DNA of 64,000 nucleotides, taken from assembly GCA_013426185.1 (NCBI GenBank), contig CP058602.1, positions 10,231 through 74,230 of the forward strand, given 5' to 3'. Position numbers and translations under genes: made by a program. Source of the DNA: Candidatus Woesebacteria bacterium (GTDB taxonomy: Bacteria; Patescibacteriota; Microgenomatia; UBA8517). Below are positions 1,517 through 63,440 of this stretch, in pieces (position 1 is the first letter of the stretch; each line of letters starts with the position of its first letter). The notes under the pieces are model-generated. The model was given only the letters and a program-made list of their open reading frames with translations, searched no databases and was not told the DNA's origin.

Positions 1517-2590
1517 ATGTTTAAATTTTTCTTTTGGCTTCTGGTTATTCTTTTGATCGTCTTTCGCTTCTTTTATCTTCGGCCCAATTTCATTGACGGC
1601 TCAAGAATTAGAATTTCGTCTGAAAGAATAGGAAGTGAGCCTTTGCGGTTTGAGAAAAGCCAAAGAATAACAATTCTTGGTCTTAAAGCTTATTTGCCTT
1701 TGTATCCTGAAATTAATTATGGAGATATGGTAACTGTGGAGGGAAGGGTAAACCTCAAGAAAAAAACGCTTGATGAGGCAAAACTTATTAAACTTGAAAA
1801 GGGCAATAGTTTTTATAAATTAAGAGAGCGATTGATTCTTTTTTATCAAAAATACCTTCCTGAACCTCATTCAAGTTTAGTTGCCGGAATGGTTTTGGGT
1901 TCAAAAGCAAGTCTGCCTTATGATTTTTGGCAAAATCTAAAAAAGACAGGCACGGCTCATGTGGTAGTTGCCTCGGGAATGAATGTTTCCTTAATTGCCG
2001 GATTTTTGGCCTCCTTTTTTATCATTTTTCTCAAAAGGCGCTATGCCTTATTGCTTTCGCTTTTGGGAATTTGGTTTTATGCTTTTCTTTGTGGCTTTGA
2101 GGCGCCTATCATAAGAGCTTCTATAATGGGTAGCCTTTCTTTCATTGCTGTTATTTTTGGCCGTATGAATTTAGCTTTAAGAGCTCTTTTTGTCTCGTTT
2201 TTTCTTATGCTTATTTTTAATCCTTACTTTATTTTTGATGTTGGTTTTATTCTTTCTTTTGCTGCAACTTTGTCATTAATTCTTTTTCAAAAGAAAGTAG
2301 ACAACTTTTTGAGATTCATTCCTTCTTTTTTAAGAGAGGGCTTTTCAACTTCTCTTGCAGCCCAAATCTTGGTCGCCCCGATACTTTATTTTACATTTGG
2401 ATACTTTTCGATATACTCGCCCCTGATAAACGGTCTTGTGCTTTGGACGGTTCCTTATATCACTATTTTGGGAATGCTTTCTGGCATTTTTTCCCTTTTT
2501 ATTCCTTTTTTGGGTAGATTTTTGCTTCTTTTGTCATATCCTTTGATTTTTTGGTTTGTAAGTTTGGTTAATCTTTTGGGAAGTATATGA
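1517..2590 (+). CDS. comEC: ComEC/Rec2 N-terminal part (DUF4131 plus polytopic competence membrane domain)
   Basis: Polytopic membrane protein with 'GTAHVVVASGMNVSLIAGFLA' ComEC competence-domain signature. The stop overlaps the next ORF start (ATGA). Confidence 0.75.
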   Translation: MFKFFFWLLVILLIVFRFFYLRPNFIDGSRIRISSERIGSEPLRFEKSQRITILGLKAYLPLYPEINYGDMVTVEGRVNLKKKTLDEAKLIKLEKGNSFYKLRERLILFYQKYLPEPHSSLVAGMVLGSKASLPYDFWQNLKKTGTAHVVVASGMNVSLIAGFLASFFIIFLKRRYALLLSLLGIWFYAFLCGFEAPIIRASIMGSLSFIAVIFGRMNLALRALFVSFFLMLIFNPYFIFDVGFILSFAATLSLILFQKKVDNFLRFIPSFLREGFSTSLAAQILVAPILYFTFGYFSIYSPLINGLVLWTVPYITILGMLSGIFSLFIPFLGRFLLLLSYPLIFWFVSLVNLLGSI

Positions 2591-3513
2591 ATATCAAGTT
2601 TTGGCGGTTTTTCTTTGGCTTTTTAGTTTTGTCTTCGGCTTTGGTTTGGCTCTTTGTCTTTCTTTCGCCTGATGACAAGTTTCATCTTGTCGCCTGTAAT
2701 GTGGGGCAGGGAGATGCGATTCTTGCTTATTATAAAGACAATCAAGTTTTGATTGATGGCGGGCCGGGGAATAGGGTACTTGATTGCCTTAGTCGTCATA
2801 TGCCCTTTTGGGATAGAAAGATTGAAATGGTCGTCCTGACTCATCCTGAGGCCGATCACTTTAGTGGTTTGATAGAGGTTTTTAAAAGGTATAATGTTGG
2901 AGCTTTTTTGGCATCTCCGCTTGAATCTAGCAGTCAAGGATACCAATTGCTAAAAGAAGAGGTGGGGAGTCGTGGGGTTAGGGTTATAGAACCGGATAGG
3001 GGTAAGAATATAGGAGTTGGTTTGATGCATTTTGTTATACTTCATCCATCGCATCAATTTTTGGCTGAAAATTCAAGCTTAGATACAACATCTCGTAATA
3101 ATCAAAATGTATCAGTCTTGGGTGCAAGAACAACTAATAGGAACTTGAATGAATTTTCAATTAACCTCATTTTAAGCTTTGGTGAGTTTGATGCTTTACT
3201 GACTGGTGATATTGTTCCTTCTGCTTCAGGTGAAGTTGAAGAGGCTTTTAAATCAGCTTTGGTGTTTATTAAAGACGGTAAGGTTGAATATCTCAAAGTG
3301 CCTCATCATGGTAGCAAAAATGGATTAACGCAGGATTTGCTGGAATTAGTAAGGCCTAAAATTGCTGTTATTTCAGTAGGCAAGAACTCCTATGGCCATC
3401 CAAGTCCTGAAATTTTGAAGATGCTTGAAAATGCTGGTGCTTCAGTTTTTCAAACTAAAGAGATGGGGGATGTAGAAGTAATCTCAGACGGCTTGAGGTG
3501 GAGGATCAGATAG
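2587..3513 (+). CDS. comEC: ComEC C-terminal metallo-beta-lactamase domain, encoded as a separate ORF
   Basis: 'LVACNVGQGDAILAY...IDGGP' and 'HPEADHFSGL' MBL-fold motifs. 4-nt overlap with the upstream ComEC membrane ORF. Confidence 0.8.
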   Translation: MNIKFWRFFFGFLVLSSALVWLFVFLSPDDKFHLVACNVGQGDAILAYYKDNQVLIDGGPGNRVLDCLSRHMPFWDRKIEMVVLTHPEADHFSGLIEVFKRYNVGAFLASPLESSSQGYQLLKEEVGSRGVRVIEPDRGKNIGVGLMHFVILHPSHQFLAENSSLDTTSRNNQNVSVLGARTTNRNLNEFSINLILSFGEFDALLTGDIVPSASGEVEEAFKSALVFIKDGKVEYLKVPHHGSKNGLTQDLLELVRPKIAVISVGKNSYGHPSPEILKMLENAGASVFQTKEMGDVEVISDGLRWRIR

Positions 3514-4106: not shown

Positions 4107-5873
4107 ATGAACTTAAAACTAAAGGACCTGGTTGCTTCCTCTTTGGGGCTTGAGGCGGGCGATATTTCTCTTGAAATACCGGAGAAAGAAGAGTTTGGCG
4201 ATTATACCACCAATTTGGCAATGCAGATTTTTGGTGACTCTACGAAGCTAAAAAAGCTTCCTTTTGGATCTTTTGATTTCAAAAATCCGCAAGGACTAGC
4301 ATCAAAAATATCTGAAATCTTAAGCCAAAACAAAGAATTGATGCATTTTATTTCTAAAATTGAAGTTAAAAAACCAGGTTTTATTAATTTTTGGTTAAAA
4401 GATGATACTTTATTTAATAATTTGATATCTATAAGTAAGGAAAAGTATGATTATGGATCAAGTCAGATTGGGGTAGGTAAAAGGGTGGTGATTGATTATT
4501 CGTCCCCTAATATTGCCAAGCAATTTTCGATTGGGCATTTGCGTTCAACTATCATTGGCCATGCGCTTTACAACATCTACCAGTTTCTGGGCTACAGGAC
4601 TATTGGCGATAACCACCTTGGTGATTGGGGGACTCAATTTGGCAAGCTTATTTATATGCTTCGCCGCTACCAGCTTAATTCTCTTGATGTTAAGACTCTT
4701 GAAGAGCTTTATGTTAAGTTTCATAAACTAGCCGAAGAAGATAAAACGGGAGAGATGGAGTTTCAGGCTCGTATCTGGTTTAGCAAGCTTGAGAAAGGTA
4801 ATAAAACGGCTTACCTCACTTGGCAAAAATGCCGCCAAATCTCGCTTCAAGAATTCAACAGAATTTATGACCTTTTGGGTGTTTCTTTTGACTATATGCT
4901 TGGTGAGAGCCATTACCAATCAGAAATAAAATCAATGCTAAAAGACAAAAAGCTATTATCAGTTCTTGAAGAAGGGGAAAATGGGGCCAAAATAATCCGT
5001 CTTGATGAGTTTGGTATAAAAACGCCTCTTATGTTTCTAAAAAGTGATGGCGCAACAACTTATGCGGCGCGAGATTTAGCTTGCCTTAGGTATCGTATGA
5101 AGCGCTTTCAGCCTCATATTATTATTTATGAGGTTGGGCAGGAACAGACGCTTCATTTTAAGCAGGTTTTTGCCGCTGCGCGCAAGCTTGGGATTGTTCC
5201 TCCTGAAGTTATTCTTTATCACACTCGCCACGGTCTTTATCTTTCTTCTTCTGGTCGCAAATTTTCAACCAGAAAAGGGGGAGCTGTTAATCTTGAAGAA
5301 GTTCTAAGAGAGGCAATAGCAAAAGCAAGGAAAATTATTGAAAGTTCTGCCACTTCACGCAATCTTTCGGAAGCTGAAATAGAAAGAGTTTCAACCGATG
5401 TTGGGATAGGTGCTATCAAATACTTTGACCTTAAGCATTCAGTTGAAAGCGATATTGTTTTTGATTGGAAAAAGATTTTGGCTTTGGAAGGAAACTCCGG
5501 GCCTTATATTCAATATACTTTTGCCCGCGCTTTTAGTGTCTTAAGTAAAGCCAAGGAGGAGGGAATTGATTTTGAAAAGGAGACTTACCTTTCAAGTTTT
5601 GATTTAGACGATCAGGAAAAAAATATTATCAGGCAGGTTTTTCATTTTGGCGAAATAATTCAAAAATCAGCTGTTGAATTTGCGCCCAACGTTTTATGCG
5701 ATTACCTTTTTACTCTTTCCCAGAAATATAACAGTTTTTATGACAAGTATCCGATTTTAAAGGAAAAGGACTTGCAAAAGAGGTTTTTGCGTCTAAAATT
5801 AACAGAAGCAACAAGCTGGGTTTTGAGAAATGGCTTGAGGCTTCTTGGCATTGAGGTAATAGAGAAGATGTAG
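4107..5873 (+). CDS. argS: Arginine--tRNA ligase
   Basis: Class I aaRS with 'SSPNIAKQFSIGHLRSTIIG' (HIGH region) and C-terminal anticodon-binding (DALR-type) domain. Start moved to the ATG at 4107 (MNLKLKD); the tracked ORF from 3972 overlaps the upstream gene and the IR. Confidence 0.9.
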   Translation: MNLKLKDLVASSLGLEAGDISLEIPEKEEFGDYTTNLAMQIFGDSTKLKKLPFGSFDFKNPQGLASKISEILSQNKELMHFISKIEVKKPGFINFWLKDDTLFNNLISISKEKYDYGSSQIGVGKRVVIDYSSPNIAKQFSIGHLRSTIIGHALYNIYQFLGYRTIGDNHLGDWGTQFGKLIYMLRRYQLNSLDVKTLEELYVKFHKLAEEDKTGEMEFQARIWFSKLEKGNKTAYLTWQKCRQISLQEFNRIYDLLGVSFDYMLGESHYQSEIKSMLKDKKLLSVLEEGENGAKIIRLDEFGIKTPLMFLKSDGATTYAARDLACLRYRMKRFQPHIIIYEVGQEQTLHFKQVFAAARKLGIVPPEVILYHTRHGLYLSSSGRKFSTRKGGAVNLEEVLREAIAKARKIIESSATSRNLSEAEIERVSTDVGIGAIKYFDLKHSVESDIVFDWKKILALEGNSGPYIQYTFARAFSVLSKAKEEGIDFEKETYLSSFDLDDQEKNIIRQVFHFGEIIQKSAVEFAPNVLCDYLFTLSQKYNSFYDKYPILKEKDLQKRFLRLKLTEATSWVLRNGLRLLGIEVIEKM

Positions 5874-9616: not shown

Positions 9617-10291
9617 ATGTCTGGCATTCTTTATATTGTTGCGACTCCTATTGGCAACCTTGAAGATATTACACTTCGAGCCTTAAGGATATTGAGAGAA
9701 GTCGACTTAATTTTAGCGGAAGATACGCGTGTTGCCAGTAAACTTCTGAATCATTATGAAATAGAAAAGCATATTTTGAGCTACCACCAACATAGCAGTG
9801 AGGAAAGAAAGCTTGAGATTTTAAGGGAGCTTCTTCTGGGTAAGAAGATTGCCTTAATCACTGATGCAGGTACACCCGGAATTTCTGATCCAGGCAATGA
9901 GCTAGTTGATTTTATTTATAAGAATTCTGATTCAGTCAAGATAGTTCCTGTTCCTGGACCTTCAGCTTTGACTGCCGCACTTTCAGTTTGTGGCTTCAGG
10001 ACAGATAAGTTTGTCTTTTTGGGCTTTTTGCCTAAAAAGGGAAATTTGGGTCTTTTTGAGTGGCTTAAAAAGGGTGGTTTTACCTTTGCTTTTTATGAAT
10101 CACCAATGAGAATTTTAAAGACTCTAGATTTGCTTTTGGAGAATTTTGGAGAGGAAAAGAGAATAGTTGTCGCCCGGGAATTAACTAAAATTTATGAGAC
10201 TCTCTATCTTGGCAAAATTAAGGAAATAAAAGAGAAGCTTGTAAGTGACAGATTGAAGGGGGAAATAGTGGTTATCGTTGAGGGTAGTTAA
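9617..10291 (+). CDS. rsmI: 16S rRNA (cytidine1402-2'-O)-methyltransferase RsmI (tetrapyrrole-methylase fold)
   Basis: 'LYIVATPIGNLEDITLRALRIL...LILAEDTR' N-terminal signature of RsmI. Confidence 0.85.
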   Translation: MSGILYIVATPIGNLEDITLRALRILREVDLILAEDTRVASKLLNHYEIEKHILSYHQHSSEERKLEILRELLLGKKIALITDAGTPGISDPGNELVDFIYKNSDSVKIVPVPGPSALTAALSVCGFRTDKFVFLGFLPKKGNLGLFEWLKKGGFTFAFYESPMRILKTLDLLLENFGEEKRIVVARELTKIYETLYLGKIKEIKEKLVSDRLKGEIVVIVEGS

Positions 10292-10387: not shown

Positions 10388-10738
10388 CACGACAGATCTC
10401 GGTCGTCGGACATCAGCTGTCGGATATCGGCTTTCAGACGTCAGACTTCAGACATCGGATATCGGCCGTCGGACATCAGCTGTCAGCCGTTGGCAATTAA
10501 TCAAAGCTGGTCGGAAGCAGTATTTAGTATTTTGTATTATGTATTATGCAGGAAATACAAGTAGAAAGTAGAAAGTAGAATGTAGAATGTAGTAAGTAGA
10601 AAGCAAAAATTCATAACTCAATAGTTAAAGGTTCAAAGTTAAAAGTTGTGTATTATCCTTTCTACTTTCTGCTTACTACTTTCTACTAATTTTAAGTTTT
10701 GACTTTTGATTTTTGAGTTTTAAGTTAATTTGTAATCT
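10388..10738. repeat. Modular low-complexity repeat array, forward orientation
   Basis: cggaYatcRg tandems, then gtattatgtattatgcagg, then gtagaaagtagaa, then aaagtt units, then gttttgacttttgatttttgagttttaagtt. Confidence 0.85.
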
Positions 10739-11984: not shown

Positions 11985-12720
11985 GCCTGAAAGCGAGAGG
12001 GAGCTGGTCGGAAGCTAGTATCACGTATCACGAAGCAAGAATCAAGAATAGGTAAAAGGCAAGAGGTAAAAGGTGAAAAAGAAACTCAAGTAGAAAGTAG
12101 AACGTAGTAAGTAGAAAGCAACGGATTTCAGCTATCAGCCGTCAGTTGTCGGAGTTGATCAGAAACTTGTATCCAGTATCTTGTATTATGTATTATGCAA
12201 GAAAATGCATTATCCCCATAATACATAATTCATAATACACAATACTAAATTCTTTTCCCTTTGTTCTATGTTCTATGTTCTATGTTCTTTGTTCTAATCT
12301 CAAGTTTTGACTTTTGAGTTTTAAGTTTTGAGTTATACTTTTGAATTTTGAGTTTTAAGTTTTAATTTAATTTGTGATTTGGAACTTGGGATTTGTTTGT
12401 AATTTGTATATTGGAATTTGGAATTTGTATATTGCCTGCCCGCAATGCTTTCAGCATAGCTGATGCAGGCGGGGGTAAAGGGTAAGAGAAATTCAAGTAG
12501 AAAGTAGTAAGTAGAATGTAGAAAGTAAAAAATCCACGGCCTAAAGGCCGTGGCTTTCTTGGCTCCATCTAAACTATTCTACATCCACGCGCTAAAGCGC
12601 GTGGCTTTATGATTAGATGTAGTAAAATTCTTAAATCCTAAATCTTAAATCAAAATTCTATAATCAAGGTTTTAAGTTTTGAATTTTGAATTAATTTTTC
12701 TCTCTTGTAGTCGTCTCGTT
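11985..12720. repeat. Modular low-complexity repeat array including two GC-rich hairpins (ccacggcctaaaggccgtgg, ccacgcgctaaagcgcgtgg)
   Basis: Direct reading. The hairpins are flanked by A/T runs and look like bidirectional terminators. The same pair recurs inverted at 15860-15950. Confidence 0.85.
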
Positions 12721-15502: not shown

Positions 15503-15959
15503 CAATCAAAATTACAAATCACAAATTACAAACAAATTCCAAGTTCCAAATCACAAATTAACTCAAAACTTAAAACTCAAAAGTCAAAACTTGAGATTAG
15601 AACAAAGAACATAGAACATAGAACATAGAACATAGAACAAAGGGAAAAGAATTTAGTATTGTGTATTATGAATTATGTATTATGGGGATAATGCATTTTC
15701 TTGCATAATACATAATACAAGATACTGGATACAATCTTTCGGCAAGTTTCCGATTAGCTTCGGCAACCGGCTCCCGACGTCCGATGTCCAACAACTGATG
15801 TCCGATATCCGATATCTGAAGTCCGAATTCTTTTACCTTTTAACTTTTACTACATCTAATCATAAAGCCACGCGCTTTAGCGCGTGGATGTAGAATAGTT
15901 TAGATGGAGCCAAGAAAGCCACGGCCTTTAGGCCGTGGATTTTTTACTCTTTTACCTAT
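15503..15959. repeat. Modular low-complexity repeat array, inverted orientation relative to 11985-12720
   Basis: Reverse-complement copies of ttggaatttg, ctatgttctatgttc, gtattatg and cggaYatcgg modules, plus the two GC hairpins. Confidence 0.85.
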
Positions 15960-18453: not shown

Positions 18454-19030
18454 TTAAGTCAGCATAAAGTATTTTAATAGGTAAAAGGTAAGAGACTTCA
18501 GCTATCGGACATCGGACGTCGGATATCGGCCGTCGGACATCAGCTGTCGGATATCGGATGTCGGATGTCAGACTTCGGTCGTCGGCTATCAGCTATCGGA
18601 GATTAATCAAAGGTAGCCGGAAGATTGTATTTAGTATTTTGTATTATGTATTATGTATTATGCAGGGAATACAAGTAGAAAGTAGAACGTAGTAAGTAGA
18701 AAGCAAAAGATTGTATCTAGTATTTTGTATTATGTATTATGGGAACAATGCATTTTTCTGCATAATACATAATTCATAATACTAAGTTCAGAATTTTTCC
18801 CTTTGTTCTTTGTTCTAACCTAGCAGGTAAAAGGCAAGGGGTAAAAGGTAAAAGGTAAAAGGTAAAAGAAATTCAATTAGAAAGTAGAAGGTAGTAAGTA
18901 GAAAGCAAAAATTCCTAGATTTTAAATCAATATTCAAGAGTTAAGCTGTCATTTTTTAGCCAGTAAAACTGAGCTGTAAAAACCTCCTGAGTCGTTAGCG
19001 AATCTTTTGCGGCGATGAAATTGTGTGCAG
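18454..19030. repeat. Modular low-complexity repeat array
   Basis: cggaYatcgg tandems, gtattatg units, the gtattatgggaacaatgcatttttctgcataatacataattcataatac hairpin, ccctttgttctttgttc, ggtaaaagg and gtagaaagtag units. Confidence 0.85.
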
Positions 19031-30719: not shown

Positions 30720-31127
30720 AAGAGGGAAACGGACATCGAACATTGGACATCGGCCGTCGGACGTCGGATGTCAGCTGTCGGCTATCGGAATTCAGCCGGA
30801 GCCGACCGAAAGATTGTATCTAGTATCTTGTATTATGTATTATGCAGGAAATATAAGTAGAAAGTAGAACGTAGTAAGTAGAAAGCAAAATTAAGAAATA
30901 GTTAAAAGTTCAAAATTAAAAGTTAAAAGTTGGAATTTATTTGTTTGGAATTTGAGAAACTGGATAATTATAGAATTGTTTAGAATTTAGAATTTAGGAT
31001 TTGGACCTTGTAATTTGGAGCTTGGAATTTGTTTGTAATTTGTAATTTGGAATTTGTGATTTAATTCTATAATCCAAAATCTACAATCTAGTTATCAAGT
31101 TTTGACTTTTAAGTTTTAAGTTATTAT
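30720..31127. repeat. Modular low-complexity repeat array, forward orientation
   Basis: cggaYatcgg, then gtattatgtattatgcagg, then gtagaaagtag, then aaagtt, then ggaatttg, then ctataatc, then gttttgacttttaagttttaagtt. Confidence 0.85.
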
Positions 31128-35739: not shown

Positions 35740-35926
35740 TCGGAAGACAGTATTTAGTATTTTGTATCTTGTATTATGTATTATGGGAATAATGCATTTT
35801 CCTGCATAATACATAATTCATAATACTAAATTCAGAATTTTTCCCTTTGTTCTATGTTTTTTGTTCTAGCTTCAAGTTTTGACTTTTGACTTTTAAGTTT
35901 TGAGTTAATTTGTAATTTTACTCTGT
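35700..35926. repeat. Modular low-complexity repeat array
   Basis: gtattatg units, the cattttcctgcataatacataattcataatac inverted module, ccctttgttctatgtt and gttttgacttttgacttttaagtt. Confidence 0.85.
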
Positions 35927-36649: not shown

Positions 36650-37027
36650 AAGTAAATTATAGCAAAAACTGATTTGAAAAGCTCGAGAGTTTGATGTTTT
36701 GGTCTCGGTCTGATTTGGAGGAATAGCCAGAGTTGGCCAGGAATAGTATCAAGAATTAAGAATCACGTATCAGGTATCAAGTATGATAATAGGTAAAAGA
36801 AACTCAAGTAGAAAGTAGAATGTAGTAAGTGGAAAGCAAAAGTTCCTAAATTCCTAAATCTATACTCAAGAGTTAAAAGTTTGCTGGGACAGGGTTGGAC
36901 CCTGTTCTAACAATTTACTACAAATACATCGATGTATTTGTAGTTGTATAAAGTTCAAAATTTTATCACCCTTTCTACTTTCTGCTTACTGCTTTTTACT
37001 CTCTTTGTTCTACTTTCTGATTTGTTT
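36650..37027. repeat. Modular low-complexity repeat array plus double palindrome (ggacagggttggaccctgttc + tactacaaatacatcgatgtatttgtagt)
   Basis: Direct reading. The palindrome pair recurs at 56361-56416. Confidence 0.85.
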
Positions 37028-37640: not shown

Positions 37641-37814
37641 TTACTTTAATTTTGTGCTTTCTTTGTGAAGGGTGACTTTTTTGCAAATCTTGCAATATTT
37701 TTTGATTTCTAGCTTTTTCTCCATATTAATCTTGTTGCGGGTTGTTGTGTAATTTTGACTGCCGCAATCTTTGCAAATCATTCCAACTATTTCTCGAGCT
37801 CCTTTTTTAGCCAT
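37641..37814 (-). CDS. rpmG: 50S ribosomal protein L33 (zinc-ribbon type). Not in the supplied ORF track because it is under 60 aa
   Basis: My own translation of the minus strand: 'MAKKGAREIVGMICKDCGSQNYTTTRNKINMEKKLEIKKYCKICKKVTLHKESTKLK', with CxxC...CxxC and the L33 consensus. Confidence 0.8.
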   Translation of the reverse strand: MAKKGAREIVGMICKDCGSQNYTTTRNKINMEKKLEIKKYCKICKKVTLHKESTKLK

Positions 37815-37896
37815 AGCTCTATTCTATCAAATAATTATTGCTTTTAAAAGTGCTTATTTACAAAATCCTGTTTTTTTTCATAAGATTAGATTATTA

Positions 37897-39150
37897 ATGA
37901 AGGTTGCTTTTATTGCTACGAGAATTTCAGGTCTCGATGGTGTTAGTCTTGAGATTGACAATTGGGGCAAAGTATTCTCGAGGATGGATCATAAAACTCT
38001 TTTTGTGGCAGGCCAACTTGATAGGGAGGGTGTTCTTCTTCCTGAACTTCACTTTCAAAACCCCGAAGTAGCAAAGCTTTACAGATGGATAGTTGAGTCA
38101 AAGAGAAGTTTTGAGAAAGTTGAGGTTAAGGTTTTTGAGATGGCAGGAAGGATAGAAGGCCTTTTGCGTCGCTCGCTTGGAAATGGCGTTTTACCTGATC
38201 TTTTGGTGGTTTCTAATGTTTTTTCCTTGCCGATGCATTTTCCGTTTGCGGTTGGTTTGGCTAGATTCATTGAGGAATATAAAATTCCAACTATTGCCCG
38301 TCATCATGATTTTTGGTGGGAGAGAGAGCGTTTTTTGAACTCGAAATGCTTTAATTTTTTCAAGCGGTGGTTTCCACCAGACTTACCATATGTTAAACAT
38401 GTAACTATTAACTCCATTGCCCAACGCGAACTTTTTGAAAGAACAGGTATAAAATCTGAACTTGTCTGGGACTCATTTGACTTCTCTTCTGATATTAAAC
38501 TTGATAAATATGCTTCGCATTTTAGAGACGATTTTGGTATAAATCCTGGTGATATCGTCTTCCTACAGGCAACAAGAATTGTCCCCAGAAAGAGGTTGGA
38601 GATTGCTATTGAGCTTGTCAGAAGGTTAAACAATCCTCGAATTGTTCTTGTCTTTGCAGGGCATGCTGGGGATGAAGGCTATCTTTACTTAAAAAAGGTT
38701 AAACAATTGGCTTACAAAGCTCCTATAAGGTGCAAGTTTATAGGCAGGTTTGTGAATTCAAGGAGGAGGGTTGTTGACCTTAAAACCAACAATCATTCCA
38801 AAAGGAGGAGAGTATACACTCTTTGGGATTGTTATCTGAATTCTGATTTTGTTGTTTATCCAACAGAGAAGGAAGGTTTTGGTAATCAGTTTGTTGAATC
38901 TGTTTTCTTTAAGAAACCTCTGATACTTACACCCTATCCTGTATACAAGAAAGACATAAAACCTTTGGGTTTTAAGGCTATAGAAATAGATGACAAACTA
39001 AAAGCAGATTCGGTAAAGAAGGTTGAAGATCTTCTCAACAACAAATACGAGGTTGAGAGGATTGTGTCTGAGAATTTTAAATTGGGTAAAAAGTATCTTT
39101 CTTACGATTGGGTAGAGTCGAAAATCCGCAAAATCCTAAAGGATATCTAA
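37897..39150 (+). CDS. GT-B fold glycosyltransferase (family 4-like)
   Basis: 'FVVYPTEKEGFGNQFVES' E-x7-E motif region. Start moved to the ATG at 37897 (MKVAFIATRISG). Confidence 0.6.
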   Translation: MKVAFIATRISGLDGVSLEIDNWGKVFSRMDHKTLFVAGQLDREGVLLPELHFQNPEVAKLYRWIVESKRSFEKVEVKVFEMAGRIEGLLRRSLGNGVLPDLLVVSNVFSLPMHFPFAVGLARFIEEYKIPTIARHHDFWWERERFLNSKCFNFFKRWFPPDLPYVKHVTINSIAQRELFERTGIKSELVWDSFDFSSDIKLDKYASHFRDDFGINPGDIVFLQATRIVPRKRLEIAIELVRRLNNPRIVLVFAGHAGDEGYLYLKKVKQLAYKAPIRCKFIGRFVNSRRRVVDLKTNNHSKRRRVYTLWDCYLNSDFVVYPTEKEGFGNQFVESVFFKKPLILTPYPVYKKDIKPLGFKAIEIDDKLKADSVKKVEDLLNNKYEVERIVSENFKLGKKYLSYDWVESKIRKILKDI

Positions 39151-39321
39151 AATATTTTTTTCCTAATTGCCAGCGTGTTTTTGGAAGATGAAAATGTTAT
39201 AGACGAGTTAGCCCGAAGGCTGTTTTTGTTTAAATCTCCTGTTGACAAACAATATTTTATATGATTTTATTATCACCATAAGCTTAATTTTTTATTTTAG
39301 TAAAGGCGATAAAAAACCAAA

Positions 39322-40308
39322 ATGTTTAATAGCTTGAGGAAATTGTCATTCAGCTTGCTAGGTCTGGGGAAAGCTTTCTTTTTATTCTCCTTTGTCGTTC
39401 TGGTTGTTTTTTTGATTCGTAATCTTGCCGAGGTTCATAAAAGTAGTCTTATGACAAATCTTCCGTCGAAACCCGCGGCGGGTCAGGTTCTTCAGGCACG
39501 TATATCTCCCATAATTGTTGATCATACTTCTGTTGATTTGTTCGAACAGATACCTGATGAATATATAACTGCAGCTAGAGAATTGAAACAAATGTTTATC
39601 GATCAATCGGTGGGAGCAAATATTAGCGAGGGGCTTACCTGTCTGAGTTATCCTTCTGTAAGTCAAGCTCCTTCTGCCTGCAAGCGCCCTAATGCTACAA
39701 CTTCAGGTCTAGTTGCAGATTCTAAGTATTCCAGAGACAACTGGGATTATTTTCATTGGGATTCGCTTAATCTATCTAATGACTATGCGGACTGGCCCGG
39801 GGTGGGCTACGCTTTTATAGAAGCTGTAACGCCGAGACTATCTCAATATCAGGTTTTTTCTTATCAGTATAGTTACCTTCATATGGGTGATCAGGATGGT
39901 ATTCATCTTATTCCGGGAGGCTTTTTTTCTGATAACCCACCCGATAGTCGTCATCCCAAGGCTGATATCTATGATATGGAGCAGTTCTTTTCTCAGCATC
40001 CAGACAAGATCTTTATCTTGTGGACATCCAGTCTGGCGAGAATAATAGGATCGCGTGCTTCTTATGAGTTCAACAATCAGATGCGGGAGTATGCTCGTTC
40101 TAATAACAAGATTCTTTTTGATGTTGCCGATATCGAGTCTCACGCTCCTGATGGCCGTGAATGTACATACAATGGTTATCCTGCAATTTGCCCTGAGTAT
40201 ACTTCTGAGCAATCTGGGGGGGCATTTGGGCAGTATGTCTACAGGGAAGATAAGGATTGCCAAGGCCATGTGGGTATTGATGGCGCAAATCGCCGGCTGG
40301 GTCCCTGA
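39322..40308 (+). CDS. Secreted/anchored protein, N-terminal domain. Reading frame ends 90 nt after a G7 homopolymer
   Basis: N-terminal TM/signal. Frame-1 ORF stops at 40308 while a frame-2 ORF (40055-40750) stays open across the junction. Confidence 0.5.
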   Translation: MFNSLRKLSFSLLGLGKAFFLFSFVVLVVFLIRNLAEVHKSSLMTNLPSKPAAGQVLQARISPIIVDHTSVDLFEQIPDEYITAARELKQMFIDQSVGANISEGLTCLSYPSVSQAPSACKRPNATTSGLVADSKYSRDNWDYFHWDSLNLSNDYADWPGVGYAFIEAVTPRLSQYQVFSYQYSYLHMGDQDGIHLIPGGFFSDNPPDSRHPKADIYDMEQFFSQHPDKIFILWTSSLARIIGSRASYEFNNQMREYARSNNKILFDVADIESHAPDGRECTYNGYPAICPEYTSEQSGGAFGQYVYREDKDCQGHVGIDGANRRLGP

Positions 40309-40750
40309 TGGTAGCGGTAGTGGAAATTCGAACCCGACACCTCAGCCGTCCGAACCTACTCCGGCTGCTACTGTTGCACCAACTCTCGCCCCTAGTCCGA
40401 CTCCTGGTAACGTGGTTGGTTACATACATGTGGGAGATATCGATCCTTCGGTGAAGTATGTAACTGGTGGATGGCAGGGCAGATTTGTTGTCTACGTGCA
40501 CAATGATTCCCATCTGCCAGTTAGTGGGGTGACAGTATCTGGTAGTTTCTACGGTGCTTGGAATGGATCTAGAACATGTGTTACCAATAAGTCAGGTTGG
40601 TGTGCTCTAACCTCTGACAGGATAAGCGATAGTACCACTGTGGGAATGTCTATAACTAACTTGAGTCTCGATGGATATCAATATGACTTTTCTTCAAATC
40701 ATGATCCTGATGGTGATTCCAACGGGTTTAACGCCTCAGTTTCTAATTGA
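40280..40750 (+). CDS. C-terminal continuation (PT/GS linker plus beta-rich domain), probably the same gene out of frame
   Basis: Begins 'GSGSGNSNPTPQPSEPTPAAT', which is linker-like, not a protein N-terminus. Confidence 0.35.
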   Translation: MAQIAGWVPDGSGSGNSNPTPQPSEPTPAATVAPTLAPSPTPGNVVGYIHVGDIDPSVKYVTGGWQGRFVVYVHNDSHLPVSGVTVSGSFYGAWNGSRTCVTNKSGWCALTSDRISDSTTVGMSITNLSLDGYQYDFSSNHDPDGDSNGFNASVSN

Positions 40751-40885
40751 ATTTACTCGTCTCGGTTGATTTTTTCTGGTTGGGGGTATAGAAAAGTGTT
40801 AGTCCGAGAATAGCCAAGGGGTTATATGGCTGTAGGTTAAAATCCTGTTATTTTGTGAATGCGAGCAGGTGACAAAACATCTGTG

Positions 40886-41060
40886 GGAGCCTGGATCGGG
40901 AATCGCCCCAGAACCAAAGCAAAGCTTGGTTCAGGGCGCCCTGAAGTGAAATGTGTTCTACTTTACGGGCGAACCCGAGACCTCATTCTTTAGACGCCAG
41001 TCGCCGTAAGGCAAGAATGCGCCCTCTTGCGAATGCAAGCAGAAGAAGAGTGTGTAATCT
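40886..41060 (-). pseudogene. Degenerate tRNA-Thr-like fragments: a partial copy with a 22-nt insertion in the anticodon loop and a duplicated 3'-terminal 19-mer (gagcctggatcgggaatcg)
   Basis: Aligned by eye to the intact tRNA-Thr(GGT) at 41062-41134. The 19-mer at 40886-40904 repeats 41061-41079. The palindrome ttcagggcgccctgaa sits at 40930-40946. Confidence 0.4.
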
Positions 41061-41061
41061 G

Positions 41062-41134
41062 AGCCTGGATCGGGAATCGAACCCGAGACCTCATTCTTAC
41101 CAAGAATGCGCTCTGCCGACTGAGCTATCCAGGC
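41062..41134 (-). tRNA. tRNA-Thr (anticodon GGT)
   Basis: Manual cloverleaf: GCCTGGA acceptor, GCTC/GAGC D-stem, anticodon loop TTGGTAA, T-arm TCGGG-TTCGATT-CCCGA. Confidence 0.85.
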
Positions 41135-41162
41135 ACTTTTCAAAAATTATAACAGACAGCCT

Positions 41163-42209
41163 TTAGATTATAAAGCAGGCGTCTCCAAAAGAATAAAAGC
41201 GATAACCTCTTTTTATTGCTTCTTGGTAAGCTTTGCCAATTAAGCTAGAACTAAAATCTTTAAATTTTTCTTTGGTTTGTGGGTAGCTGACAAATGCTGA
41301 AACCAAGGCAAGAAGAGTTGAGTGGGGAAGGTGAAAATTTGTTATCAAAGCATCTGTCATCTTAAATTTGAAGGGTGGATAAATAAAAAGGTTTGTCTTG
41401 CCTGAAATTTCGGGACAGGCTTCGTCCAGGCTTTCAATGGCGCGCGTCATGGTGGTGCCGACTGCGATTATTCTTTTGCCGTCCTTTTTTGCCTCAAAAA
41501 GCCTTTCTGCTACTTCTTTTTTAATCTCAAAATATTCAGAATGGATTTTATGGTCTTCTAGGTTTTCGCTTTTAATAGGAGCAAAAGTTCCCAGCCCAAC
41601 ATGAAGAGTCACGAATTCTATCTTTACTCCGTTATTTTTAAGCTTTCTAATTAATCTTTTGGTAAAGTGAAATCCTGCCGTTGGGGCTGCGACCGAACCT
41701 GTTTTTTGAGCATAGACCGTCTGATATTGTTTCCTTAAAAGAGATTCTTTTTGGTTCGTTTTAATATAAGGGGGTAGGGGAGTTTTGCCAAATTTTTGAA
41801 GAAGGTAAAAGAGCTCATCTTTTTTGAGTTTGGTTTTGATTAGAGTTTGATTACTATCTTGATTGAGGCAAGTGAATTCTTGGTCTTTAAAAAATATTTT
41901 ATGACCTTTTTTAAGTCCAGGTTTTGTTAAAACTTGCCATATTTTCGGTCTTATTTCTTCAAGAAACAAGACCTCGATTTTTCCGCCTGTTTCCTTTCTA
42001 GCAATAATTCTTGCGGGGAAGACTTTTGTCTTATTGAAAACTAGAATATCGTTTTCTCCCATAAAATTGGCGATATCGCTAAATTTATGATGGCTTATGG
42101 TTTTAGTTTTCCTATTGATTACAAGAAGTCTTGAGGCATCACGAGGTGAGGCTGGTTTTTGGGCAATTAGCGCTTTTGGGAGATTATAGTCGAAAAGAGA
42201 AGATTTCAT
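41163..42209 (-). CDS. queA: S-adenosylmethionine:tRNA ribosyltransferase-isomerase
   Basis: 'MKSSLFDYNLPKALIAQKPASPRDASRLLV' QueA N-terminus; length and conserved blocks consistent. Confidence 0.9.
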   Translation of the reverse strand: MKSSLFDYNLPKALIAQKPASPRDASRLLVINRKTKTISHHKFSDIANFMGENDILVFNKTKVFPARIIARKETGGKIEVLFLEEIRPKIWQVLTKPGLKKGHKIFFKDQEFTCLNQDSNQTLIKTKLKKDELFYLLQKFGKTPLPPYIKTNQKESLLRKQYQTVYAQKTGSVAAPTAGFHFTKRLIRKLKNNGVKIEFVTLHVGLGTFAPIKSENLEDHKIHSEYFEIKKEVAERLFEAKKDGKRIIAVGTTMTRAIESLDEACPEISGKTNLFIYPPFKFKMTDALITNFHLPHSTLLALVSAFVSYPQTKEKFKDFSSSLIGKAYQEAIKRGYRFYSFGDACFII

Positions 42210-42230
42210 AGTACAAATTACAATATACAA

Positions 42231-42610
42231 ATTCCAAGCTCCAAATTACAATATACAAACAATATACAAATTCTAAATTCTAATTTCTAATTTCTAAATC
42301 CTAAACAAATCGCAAATCACAAATTAACTTAAAACTTAAAAGTCAAAAGTCAAAACTTGACAATTAGATTATAGAATCTAGATTAGAGATTATAGAATTA
42401 AATCACAAATTACAATATACAAATTACAAATTCTAATTTCTAAATCCTAAATTCTAAACAATTTTACAATCATCGAATTTTCCAATCACAAACAGATTAG
42501 GAATACTGAATTTAGTATTATGAATTATGTATTATGCAGGAAAATGCATTGTTCCCATAATACATAATACAAGATACTAGATACAATCTTTTGCTTTCTA
42601 CTTACTACGT
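42231..42610. repeat. Modular low-complexity repeat array, inverted orientation
   Basis: Reverse-complement modules in reverse order (caaattccaa, gattatag, cataatac, ctactttctac). Confidence 0.85.
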
Positions 42611-42632
42611 TCTACTTTCTACTGTTGTTAGT

Positions 42633-42725: not shown

Positions 42726-42730
42726 ACTGG

Positions 42731-42815
42731 TGTCAGGTGAGGGATTCGAACCCCCGAAGCCCATCCGGGCGGCAGTTTTACAGACTGCTCCGATTGTCCA
42801 CTCCGGCAACCTGAC
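42731..42815 (-). tRNA. tRNA-Tyr (anticodon GTA), long variable arm
   Basis: GTCAGGT/ACCTGAC acceptor, anticodon loop CTGTAAA, 85 nt. Confidence 0.75.
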
Positions 42816-47706: not shown

Positions 47707-48037
47707 AGATTAATTTTAGGTTTATTGAGGCTTTAAGGCAAGGGGAAAGCAGTCGGAGTTGGTCCTCGCTTAGAGCAAGGTTGGCCAAAGTTAGTCTCCA
47801 CCTGCGGCGGAGTTAGTCGAAGCTGGCAGGAAGCTAGTATTTAGTATTTTGTATTATGTATTATGCAGGAAATACAAGTAGGAAGTAGAAAGTAGTAAGT
47901 AGAAAGCAAAATTCATAAATCTTAAATCTTAAATCCTAAATCTAGATTCTATAATCTGTTTGTAATTTGGATCTTGGAATTTGTAATTTTAACTTTTGTA
48001 ATCCGTGACAAGGACGGACCTTGTCAACAAAACTAAA
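47707..48037. repeat. Modular low-complexity repeat array ending in the palindrome tgacaaggacggaccttgtca (48006-48026)
   Basis: Direct reading. Confidence 0.85.
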
Positions 48038-56389: not shown

Positions 56390-56830
56390 ACTACAAATAC
56401 ATCGATGTATTTATAGTTGAAGAAGTTGAAAGTTAATTTGCTAGATTTTAATTGCGTAAGATGACAAGGACGGACCTTGTCAAGCACCCTTTAAAGGCCT
56501 GGCCTTTAAAGGGTGGTCGAGGATGGCCGGAGCTGGTAGGAAGCTAGTATTTAGTATCTTGTATTATGTATTATGCAGGAAATACAAGTAGGAAGGAGAA
56601 AGTAGTAAGTAGAAAGCAAAAATAAAAAGTTCAAAATTAAAAGTTCAAAGTTGGAATTTACTAGTTTGTAATTTGGAAAATTGGATAATTGTAGAATTGT
56701 TTAGAATTTAGGATTTAGAAATTAGAATTTGGAATTTGTATATTGGAATTTGTATATTGTATATTGTTTGTAATTTGTGATTTGTTTATTGGAATTTGTA
56801 ATTTTATTCTTTGTCCTATGTTCTTTGTTC
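56390..56830. repeat. Palindrome cluster (double palindrome; tgacaaggacggaccttgtca; caccctttaaaggcctggcctttaaagggtg) followed by a modular low-complexity array
   Basis: Direct reading. Confidence 0.85.
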
Positions 56831-62730: not shown

Positions 62731-63440
62731 CTTCAAACAGTGGGTAAAGACGGACTTCGGACTTCAGTTATCGGCTGTCGGACATCGGACATCGGATATC
62801 GGATATCAGTTATCGGCTGTCGGATATCGGCTGTCGGAATTCAGTCGAAGTTAGTCGGAAGAAAATATCTGCATTATGAAAGATCCAAGTAGAAAGTAGT
62901 AAGTAGAAAGTAGAAAGCAAAATTAATAAATAGTTAAAAGTTCAAAGTTGAAAGTTAAAAGAATTCGGATTTCAGCTATCAGTTGTCAGCTGTCGGAGTT
63001 GTTTGCTATCTTAATTCATAAATCTTAAATCCTAAATCAAAATTCTATAATCTATAATCCATAATCAAAAATCTATAATCTAATCATAAAGTTTTGACTT
63101 TTGATTTTTAATTTTTAATTTAATTTGTGATTTGGAATTTGCCTGCCCTGAATCGAATTTATTCTGGTTCAGGGTTTAGAATTTAGATATTAGAATTTAG
63201 AATTTGGAATTTGTATATTGTTTGTATATTGGAATTTGGAGCTTGGATTTGTAATTTCTAATTTGTGATTTTCCCTTTGTTCTTTGTTCTAACCTAGTAG
63301 GTAAAAAGCAAGGGGTAAAAGGTAAAAGAAATTCAAGTAGAAAGTAGAACGTAGTAAGTAGAAAGCAAAATTCTATAATCTATAATCCAAAATCTATAAT
63401 CTAATTAGAAAGTTTTGACTTTTAACTTCTGCCTCTTGAG
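62731..63440. repeat. Modular low-complexity repeat array, the longest tandem instance (module order repeated roughly twice)
   Basis: Direct reading. Confidence 0.85.

Follow-up and report, generated by a model that had tools for sequence, protein, structure and literature searches.

A tRNA-derived unit behind tRNA-Thr(GGT)

A gene for tRNA-Thr(GGT) and, directly behind it, a 174-bp unit made from parts of the same tRNA and its 3' trailer lie on the reverse strand of contig CP058602.1 from a Candidatus Woesebacteria genome (assembly GCA_013426185.1). The contig was analysed over a stretch of 64,000 nucleotides (positions 10,231 to 74,230), hereafter called the window, and all coordinates refer to this stretch unless another sequence is named. 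Homologues of QueA, the best of which are 97%, 88%, 74% and 70% identical, place the window in the Patescibacteria (Microgenomates/Woesebacteria-like), and the homologues of its L33 protein carry Woesebacteria names. The structure of the unit and its variable number among relatives suggest a tandem partial duplication of the tRNA gene. In the tRNA sense, the parts of the unit follow one another in the order trailer, hairpin H1, AGGGCGCATTCTT, 22 nt, 21-mer, 64 nt and 19-mer.

41061/41062-41134 (-): intact tRNA-Thr(GGT), identified by ARAGORN and by Rfam RF00005 (67.5 bits)
40887-41060 (-): tRNA-derived unit (trailer, partial tRNA copy, distal 19-mer), 174 bp, an exact presence/absence segment among strains
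41040-41060 (-): unit trailer, sense AGATTACACACTCTTCTTCTG, 21 nt, 3 of 21 sites variable within the clade
41026-41039 (-): hairpin H1, sense CTTGC-ATTC-GCAAG, in the place of the D arm, joining trailer-derived to tRNA-derived sequence
41013-41025 (-): copy of the D-stem 3' strand and anticodon-stem 5' strand, sense AGGGCGCATTCTT, from the repeat search
40991-41012 (-): 22-nt anticodon replacement, sense GCCTTACGGCGACTGGCGTCTA, with conserved core CCTTACGGCGACT, unique in the window
40970-40990 (-): 21-nt copy of tRNA positions 37-57, comprising the anticodon-stem 3' strand, the variable loop, the T-stem 5' strand and half of the T loop
40906-40969 (-): 64-nt segment inserted into the copy's T loop, edged by a duplicated CG, with two predicted hairpins and a 16-nt palindrome
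40887-40905 (-): distal copy of the tRNA 3' 19-mer (tRNA positions 56-74), from the repeat search
40843-40886 (-): native tRNA trailer, sense CCCACAGATG...CTGCTCGCATTCACAAAA..., directly after the tRNA in unit-less strains

The unit is tied to the tRNA gene by perfect direct repeats. The final 19 nt of tRNA-Thr(GGT) (41061-41079) are the proximal copy of the 19-mer GAGCCTGGATCGGGAATCG, and the distal copy at 40887-40905 is 100% identical; the initial annotation had recognised this second copy but placed it one base off, at 40886-40904. The 21-mer CGAACCCGAGACCTCATTCTT is likewise 100% identical at 40970-40990 and 41078-41098, and a 14-mer repeat (41012-41025 vs 41101-41114) agrees at 13 of 14 positions. 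These repeats are not chance matches: 100 shuffles produced no match to the 19-mer with ≤3 mismatches, and blastn-short gave E = 8e-7 for the 21-mer and 1e-5 for the 19-mer. The 64-kb window holds no third copy of the 19-mer, and no partial copies of its other five tRNAs were found. The 155 bp between the two 19-mers are non-coding and consist of a copy of tRNA positions ~20-57 together with trailer-like sequence. The partial copy is directly adjacent and has the orientation of the tRNA, from whose end its start is 35 nt away. ARAGORN, Rfam and the repeat search bear out the earlier description of a tRNA-Thr(GGT) accompanied by partial degenerate copies.

The 22-mer TAGACGCCAGTCGCCGTAAGGC lies at 40991-41012 between the two anticodon-stem halves and stands in place of the ACC/GGT triplet; what had been described as a 22-nt insertion into the anticodon loop replaces the anticodon. 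A derivation of this loop as a direct or inverted copy of part of the tRNA was rejected, because its local alignments with the tRNA in either orientation scored no better than those of shuffles. The 64-nt segment gave a best local score of 29 against the rest of the window, compared with a null maximum of 32-34, which is not significant. It contains the palindrome reported between the repeats, TTCAGGGCGCCCTGAA, which measures 16 nt (40930-40945) and not 14. Within the native trailer, an 18-nt stretch (40851-40868) matches the unit trailer plus H1 at 15 of 18 positions and at a similar offset. The AGGGCGCATTCTT segment of the window differs from the other alleles by one A-to-G change, which pairs as G.U in the extended stem.

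The queA gene (41163-42230; Pfam Queuosine_synth) lies just upstream of tRNA-Thr(GGT), with a promoter-like site before the tRNA.

41146-41174 (-): promoter-like site upstream of tRNA-Thr(GGT), with TTTATA, a 17-nt spacer, TATAAT and a TG extension, matching the consensus at 10 of 12 positions

This sequence is unchanged in related strains. No terminator-like site was found in 40600-41400, and hence none between the tRNA and the unit. Judged from its sequence, the site would drive tRNA-Thr and, via read-through, the 174-bp unit.

Copy number of the unit in close relatives

The unit is present in 0, 1 or 2 copies among close relatives of the window. Relatives (given by L numbers) were gathered via exact-protein look-ups and one metagenome scan for the loop motif, and all four metagenome matches to the loop fell at the same locus. 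In a species-representative genome collection searched with QueA, the relatives were all ≤46% identical, and L049, found via its L33 homologue, has another synteny and was uninformative. The most direct comparison is L010, which is 98-99% identical to the window and aligns with it end to end with a single gap of exactly 174 bp. In L010, the single tRNA is directly followed by CCACAGATG..., which in the window comes after the distal 19-mer. Exactly the same 174 bp between the 19-mers are missing from L039, a strain of another project that is likewise ~98-99% identical to the window. The indel polymorphism that had been proposed as a check on the locus is thus real, precise and bounded by the 19-nt repeats. 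One unit occurs in L033-L036, L038, L040 and L044-L048, giving at least 12 assemblies with one unit in all, and the unit of one allele is unchanged in at least 5 independent samples.

Two strains, L037 and L042, carry two units, a short proximal one (108 bp) and a long distal one (174 bp). In the proximal unit, the 21-mer runs directly into the 19-mer as in the tRNA, while the 19-mer of the distal unit has decayed at 3-4 positions. The array has a 108-bp period with 2.2 copies and 98% matches (Tandem Repeats Finder), and three copies of the 21-mer stand 108 bp apart. The 22-nt loop shows 0/22 differences in the single-unit alleles, and its only change is found in the distal unit of L042, which is decaying. 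At 4-fold sites in queA, the strains compared here differ from the window by 5-8%; copy number therefore varies between 0, 1 and 2 within what amounts to a single species-level cluster. The loss has its breakpoint in the 19-mer and the gain in the 21-mer, an outcome expected of unequal homologous recombination or slippage between perfect repeats. As read from the assemblies, these copy-number dynamics at tRNA-identical repeats are the part of our account that we consider established.

A shorter unit in a sister lineage

The unit is also found outside the window clade. The complete genome AP024680.1 (L013/L014; QueA 70% identical) and strain L050 carry a shorter unit in the same place, which lacks the 64-nt segment and has the loop GACCTTACGGCGACTTGAAGTCTA. 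All short units (L037A, L042A, L013 and L050) lack this segment and are 66 bp shorter. The window and L013 have diverged by 58% at 4-fold sites, yet ~20 of the 22 loop positions of the window recur in L013 and L050. The stems of H1 are identical at 10/10 positions in all units, L013 and L050 included, and only its loop differs (ATTC, TTTC, TTCTA or TTTTA); the unit trailer of the window cannot be aligned with that of the sister lineage. In L050, the direct repeat is 71 nt long with 96% identity; it comprises tRNA positions 37-74 and the 33 nt of trailer that come next. Because this repeat reaches into the trailer, the duplicated block includes the trailer, and its two trailer copies have been homogenised.

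No unit is present in L011 (QueA 74%) or in relatives at ≤66%. The tRNA-Thr(GGT) gene is the same at 74/74 positions in L013, L036, L037 and L050. Both tRNA-Thr(GGT) and tRNA-Trp are identical between the window and L013 and different in L011, so the two unit-bearing lineages may simply be sisters. The trailer of the unit-less tRNA in L011 (L011 9162-9200) starts with AGATAT..., similar to AGATTA... in the window unit, and holds the 7 nt GCCTTAC with which the 22-nt loop begins. A former unit may have left this as its final remnant, or the match may be due to chance.

Tandem partial duplication as the probable origin of the unit

We consider the region to be a tandem partial duplicate of tRNA-Thr(GGT) and its 3' trailer, that is, a pseudo-tRNA repeat unit and not the scar of a cargo-bearing element, with a probability of about 0.58. 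In the ancestor of the window and AP024680-like lineages, a block that started near tRNA position 18 and reached about 30 nt beyond the tRNA would have been duplicated head to tail. The copy would have been unable to serve as a tRNA, lacking the 5' acceptor strand and the D-stem 5' strand and having its anticodon swapped for ~22 nt. In the window clade, an extra hairpin-forming segment of 64 nt would then have been put into the T loop of the copy. Copy number is altered by homologous recombination or slippage between the 19- and 21-nt stretches that are identical to the parent gene: an exchange between the 19-mers removes the unit cleanly (L010, L039), and one between the 21-mers adds a 108-bp unit (L037, L042). 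The same recombination homogenises repeats, which accounts for the identity of the two trailer copies in L050. The duplication is old enough to be common to two lineages, was modified later, and its copies are now gained and lost. The partial copies lie adjacent and on the same strand, the repeat period includes a spacer and the copy number varies, as in tRNA pseudogene arrays. The evidence on neutral decay is mixed: the distal units of L037 and L042 are decaying, but both lineages have conserved the loop and H1, and one helix maintains its pairing through compensatory changes.

Several observations weigh against a simple duplication. Duplication alone leaves unexplained why the same ~22-nt anticodon replacement occurs in two lineages that are 58% diverged, for which selection or transfer between lineages is needed. 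In the window clade, the repeat identity starts in the T loop and stops exactly at the tRNA end (...GGCTC); the identity blocks of T-loop-class integrases, as Williams is said to have described in 2002, look like that. The structure-preserving changes in the 64-nt segment suggest that the unit is more than decaying junk. Its transcription from the tRNA promoter, as a structured 3' trailer, is probable to judge from the promoter-like site, but remains a prediction. Additionally, the order of gain and loss is derived by parsimony over few lineages, with L011 and more distant relatives being without the unit.

A variable envelope-gene block next to the unit

The region between the unit and rpmG is variable among strains, and part of it (39322-40750) had been suggested as possible cargo of an integrated element.

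37830-40886 (+): strain-variable envelope-gene block between the unit and rpmG, with a surface-protein gene and a GT4 gene (context, outside the unit)
37771-39150: GT4 glycosyltransferase, within the variable block
39322-40750 (+): gene for a secreted or surface protein, with a frameshift near 40217-40230

The block 37830-40886 is absent in L033, L036, L037, L042, L044 and L013, where rpmG follows directly, and in L034 and L035 the glycosyltransferase gene is the only part present. In L011 (9293-11936), the GT4 and surface-protein genes stand in the opposite order relative to tRNA-Thr and rpmG, without an inversion. As sequence comparison indicates, a small hypervariable envelope-gene locus separates tRNA-Thr(GGT) from rpmG, and replacement by homologous recombination between conserved flanks explains its variation with no integrase needed. 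The notion of a plastic locus thus holds for the block, but the block is not bounded by the tRNA repeats: no tRNA-end repeat was found at its far end, either with ≤3 mismatches or by blastn-short. The frameshift splits the surface-protein gene into frames of 328 and 231 aa. The same split is found in L040, whereas the gene is intact in the 99.9%-identical strain L038 (475 aa), in L039 and in L011, whose homologue (481 aa, 72% identity) was used to locate the frameshift by tblastn. Either the gene became a pseudogene very recently, or the frameshift is a strain-specific or sequencing error. A 16/17 match to tRNA-Thr positions 42-58 (GAGGTGTCGGGTTCGAA) at 40328-40344 (-) lies inside the surface-protein frame with E = 0.05 and was treated as chance. 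In L039, an rve-family (insertion-sequence-type) transposase gene at 4431-5366 (-) lies ~1 kb downstream of rpmG and 4 kb away from the locus; it is absent there in other strains, and no further rve transposase was seen.

Integration, intron and mobile-repeat explanations

The initial annotation had suggested that an integrase produced the duplicated tRNA end and that 39322-40750 could be its remnant cargo. In this scenario, a tyrosine-integrase element inserted at the T loop or 3' end of tRNA-Thr(GGT), restored the gene while pushing the original 3' end outward, and was later deleted almost entirely. The 155 bp left between the attachment sites attL and attR would be an extreme, integrase-less and cis-mobilisable remnant, excision or repeat recombination would create the empty sites, and an attP-like sequence would be expected in which ...GGTTCTGGGG is joined to CGATTCCCGATCCAGGCTC and AGATTACAC. 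The 19-nt direct repeat does agree with this scenario, being the tRNA 3' end from the T loop, with one copy completing the gene and the other preceding the native flank, and the locus adjoins a strain-variable gene block. Fragments of tRNA genes of such a kind are a common product of integration (PMC9897764, PMC4383910). The exact, repeat-bounded empty sites in L010 and L039 also agree, although repeat recombination explains them equally well. However, neither an integrase nor another mobile-element gene lies in or beside the repeats or among the 27 open reading frames of the window tested with Pfam. Searches of viral contigs for the loop pattern and the 19-mer core, and of phage records and plasmids by blastn, gave no match to the repeat core, the loop or the whole unit. 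The DNA between the repeats is itself derived from tRNA and trailer and is not foreign. The identity block left by an integrase is expected to stop near the tRNA end, whereas the repeat of L050 passes it by 33 nt. Copy number not only falls to zero but rises to two, with a 108-bp period and via exchange at another repeat. The supposed cargo lies outside the repeats, is kept unchanged when the unit is lost and has an intact homologue in L011. We therefore regard an integrase-made scar as improbable, and the cargo claim is not supported.

Tandem duplication also accounts for the locus better than two further explanations. The position of the 22 nt, exactly inside an intact 7-bp anticodon-like stem, would fit an anticodon-loop intron in an intron-containing, split or permuted tRNA. 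The 5' acceptor strand and D-stem 5' strand are, however, nowhere upstream, ARAGORN with intron search and thresholds lowered to 80% returned nothing in the unit, and the Rfam tRNA model had no match in it at E≤10. Moreover, the insert replaces positions 34-36 and does not lie at 37/38, its length falls well below that of a group I intron, and the T loop is interrupted in the window clade and mutated at C56 in L013. The intron or split-tRNA explanation was accordingly rejected on the missing strands and on the ARAGORN and Rfam results, with a residual chance in the order of one percent, and the view of these sequences as fragments stands. It is just as implausible that the arrangement is an error of assembly, or that the unit belongs to a small dispersed mobile repeat resembling miniature inverted-repeat transposable elements (MITEs). 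The genome does hold a dispersed family of 80-125-bp repeats, and the 10-mer AAAGTAGAAC is common to it and the 64-nt segment. However, the same arrangement recurs in at least 12 independent assemblies (JGI, ENA and Logan), and the unit occurs at one locus only, both in the window and in the metagenome matches. Membership of the 64-nt segment in the dispersed family was rejected, as only the 10-mer is common and its score remained below the null maximum given above.

A possible structured RNA

The unit could also be a functional tRNA-derived non-coding RNA that is co-transcribed with tRNA-Thr and maintained by selection, an origin by duplication being compatible with such a role. We view this as possible but doubtful. 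The predicted fold consists of H1, a long anticodon-arm-like hairpin showing the single-stranded motif CCUUACGGCGACU and, in the window clade, two more hairpins, which the T stem closes; the partner of the conserved loop would be a protein or, through base-pairing, another RNA. Conservation argues for function, as the stems of H1 and most of the loop are kept despite the divergence of the lineages at 4-fold sites, while no alignment is possible for the trailer next to them. The loop and H1 belong to the unit alone, so conversion from the tRNA cannot maintain them. The loop is unchanged in every single-unit allele, and its lone change lies in a redundant distal unit that is decaying elsewhere too. 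In the 64-nt segment, 10-13 of 64 sites differ between the window and the other alleles, compared with ~6% for 4-fold sites and ~2% for the remainder of the unit (Fisher p = 0.01 and 1e-4). Within it, the helix 40905-40937 of 14 pairs shows 2 compensatory changes and 4 one-sided changes via G.U, with 100% of cells paired and none broken. The G.U pairs exist only when the tRNA-sense strand is read, an indication that RNA and not DNA is what folds. Minimum free energy z-scores were -2.4 for the window and -2.2 for L013, and in the T-arm copy of L013 and L050, 2 of 3 substitutions create pairing with the acceptor 3' strand.

Other results speak against a function. The unit is dispensable, being absent in the near-identical L010 and L039 as well as in L011 and more distant relatives. 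The conserved module of H1 and the anticodon-like arm shows no covariation, though only because every pair is invariant, and all compensatory changes are on one branch, the window allele, so that the shuffle control reaches only 20/500. No family in Rfam 15 matches the unit at E≤10; over 40700-41200, this search returned only the true tRNA and an antisense chance match on the tRNA itself. The loop core has no exact complementary site in the 64 kb besides the loop itself. Transfer between lineages is a further difficulty: tRNA loci are exchanged here, as in the tRNA-Tyr allele replaced within the clade, and transfer together with homogenisation could mimic cross-lineage conservation. Only tentatively, then, might the unit represent a previously undescribed, lineage-restricted and tRNA-Thr-derived structured RNA of Woesebacteria-like Patescibacteria, in which the 13-nt motif CCUUACGGCGACU replaces the anticodon and the T-loop insert evolves fast under structure-preserving selection.

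Other tRNA loci and dispersed repeats in the window

Allele exchange at tRNA genes is apparent elsewhere in the window. In tRNA-Tyr (GTA; 42728-42815), the allele of the window and L036 is identical to that of L037 at 66/88 positions and differs at 22/88. The L037 allele matches distant relatives (compared: L013, L011, L016 and L021), and the window allele encodes a CCA end. On sequence comparison, the tRNA-Tyr gene looks as if it had been replaced by horizontal exchange within the clade, and tRNA-Thr(TGT) shows a similarly mosaic pattern. Adjacent frames at 1517-3513 (+) carry Competence (ComEC) and metallo-beta-lactamase domains and resemble a DNA-uptake channel; ComEC-like genes fit frequent allele exchange at tRNA loci.

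The window also contains dispersed AT-rich, partly palindromic intergenic repeats of ~35-125 bp, which are up to 97% identical, occur in both orientations and often lie near tRNA genes.

42502-42627, 943-1021, 10520-10690, 12089-12295, 15599-15739, 18621-18910, 30809-30890: dispersed repeats
35742-35839, 36807-36842, 47831-47911, 56541-56698, 62887-62922, 63336-63370: dispersed repeats, continued

This family looks like MITE- or repetitive extragenic palindromic (REP)-like elements in a very small genome.

Comparison with known systems

When a tRNA 3' end is duplicated next to a block of variable genes, an integrated island is usually considered proven. In the present case, such repeats more probably stem from local gene duplication, and the variable block is outside them. 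Patescibacteria genomes are otherwise regarded as streamlined and stable, whereas at this locus the copies of a tRNA-derived repeat vary in number (0, 1 or 2) within a natural population of these bacteria, a clear case of recombination at repeats of 19-21 nt. The conserved anticodon replacement, the structure-preserving insert and the streamlined genome of the candidate phyla radiation (CPR) give the locus a moderate interest. To our knowledge, almost no regulatory RNAs have been described in this phylum. If selection on the loop and the covarying hairpin is real, the unit would be a candidate for a new tRNA-derived RNA in Patescibacteria and would show a tRNA gene duplicate recruited to a new RNA function in an ultra-small genome.

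The E. coli glyW-cysT-leuZ 3' external transcribed spacer (3'ETS), a regulatory spacer that serves as a small-RNA sponge, offers one parallel. Like tRNA 3'ETS RNAs, the unit is a conserved structured sequence right after a tRNA with a possible short single-stranded motif, its read-through being deduced here from the promoter-like site and the lack of a terminator-like site. Unlike the E. coli 3'ETS, it is itself derived from a tRNA and dispensable in some strains. Integrase-made tRNA fragments, such as the attL/attR fragments of Islander-type islands (PMC4383910; PMC9897764), share with it the tRNA 3'-end repeat, the exact empty sites and the variable block next door. This resemblance is only superficial, since the unit has no integrase, its 155 bp are derived from tRNA and trailer, copies are gained, the repeat of the sister lineage runs past the tRNA end and the variable block lies outside.

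The closest described counterpart is the plastid trnF(GAA) pseudogene arrays of Brassicaceae and Solanaceae, which consist of a varying number of tandem partial tRNA copies; these have no acceptor stems, and their anticodon domain is the best preserved (PMC3786074). In both cases, head-to-tail partial copies lie beside a functional tRNA, their number differs between close relatives, the acceptor-stem strands are missing, the anticodon domain is the best conserved part and the proposed mechanism is illegitimate or unequal recombination. Unlike the plastid arrays, the unit is bacterial (Patescibacteria), lies downstream and not upstream of the gene and is limited to 0-2 copies. It further differs in its conserved 22-nt anticodon replacement, in the 64-nt structured T-loop insert of one unit and in its presence in two deeply diverged lineages.

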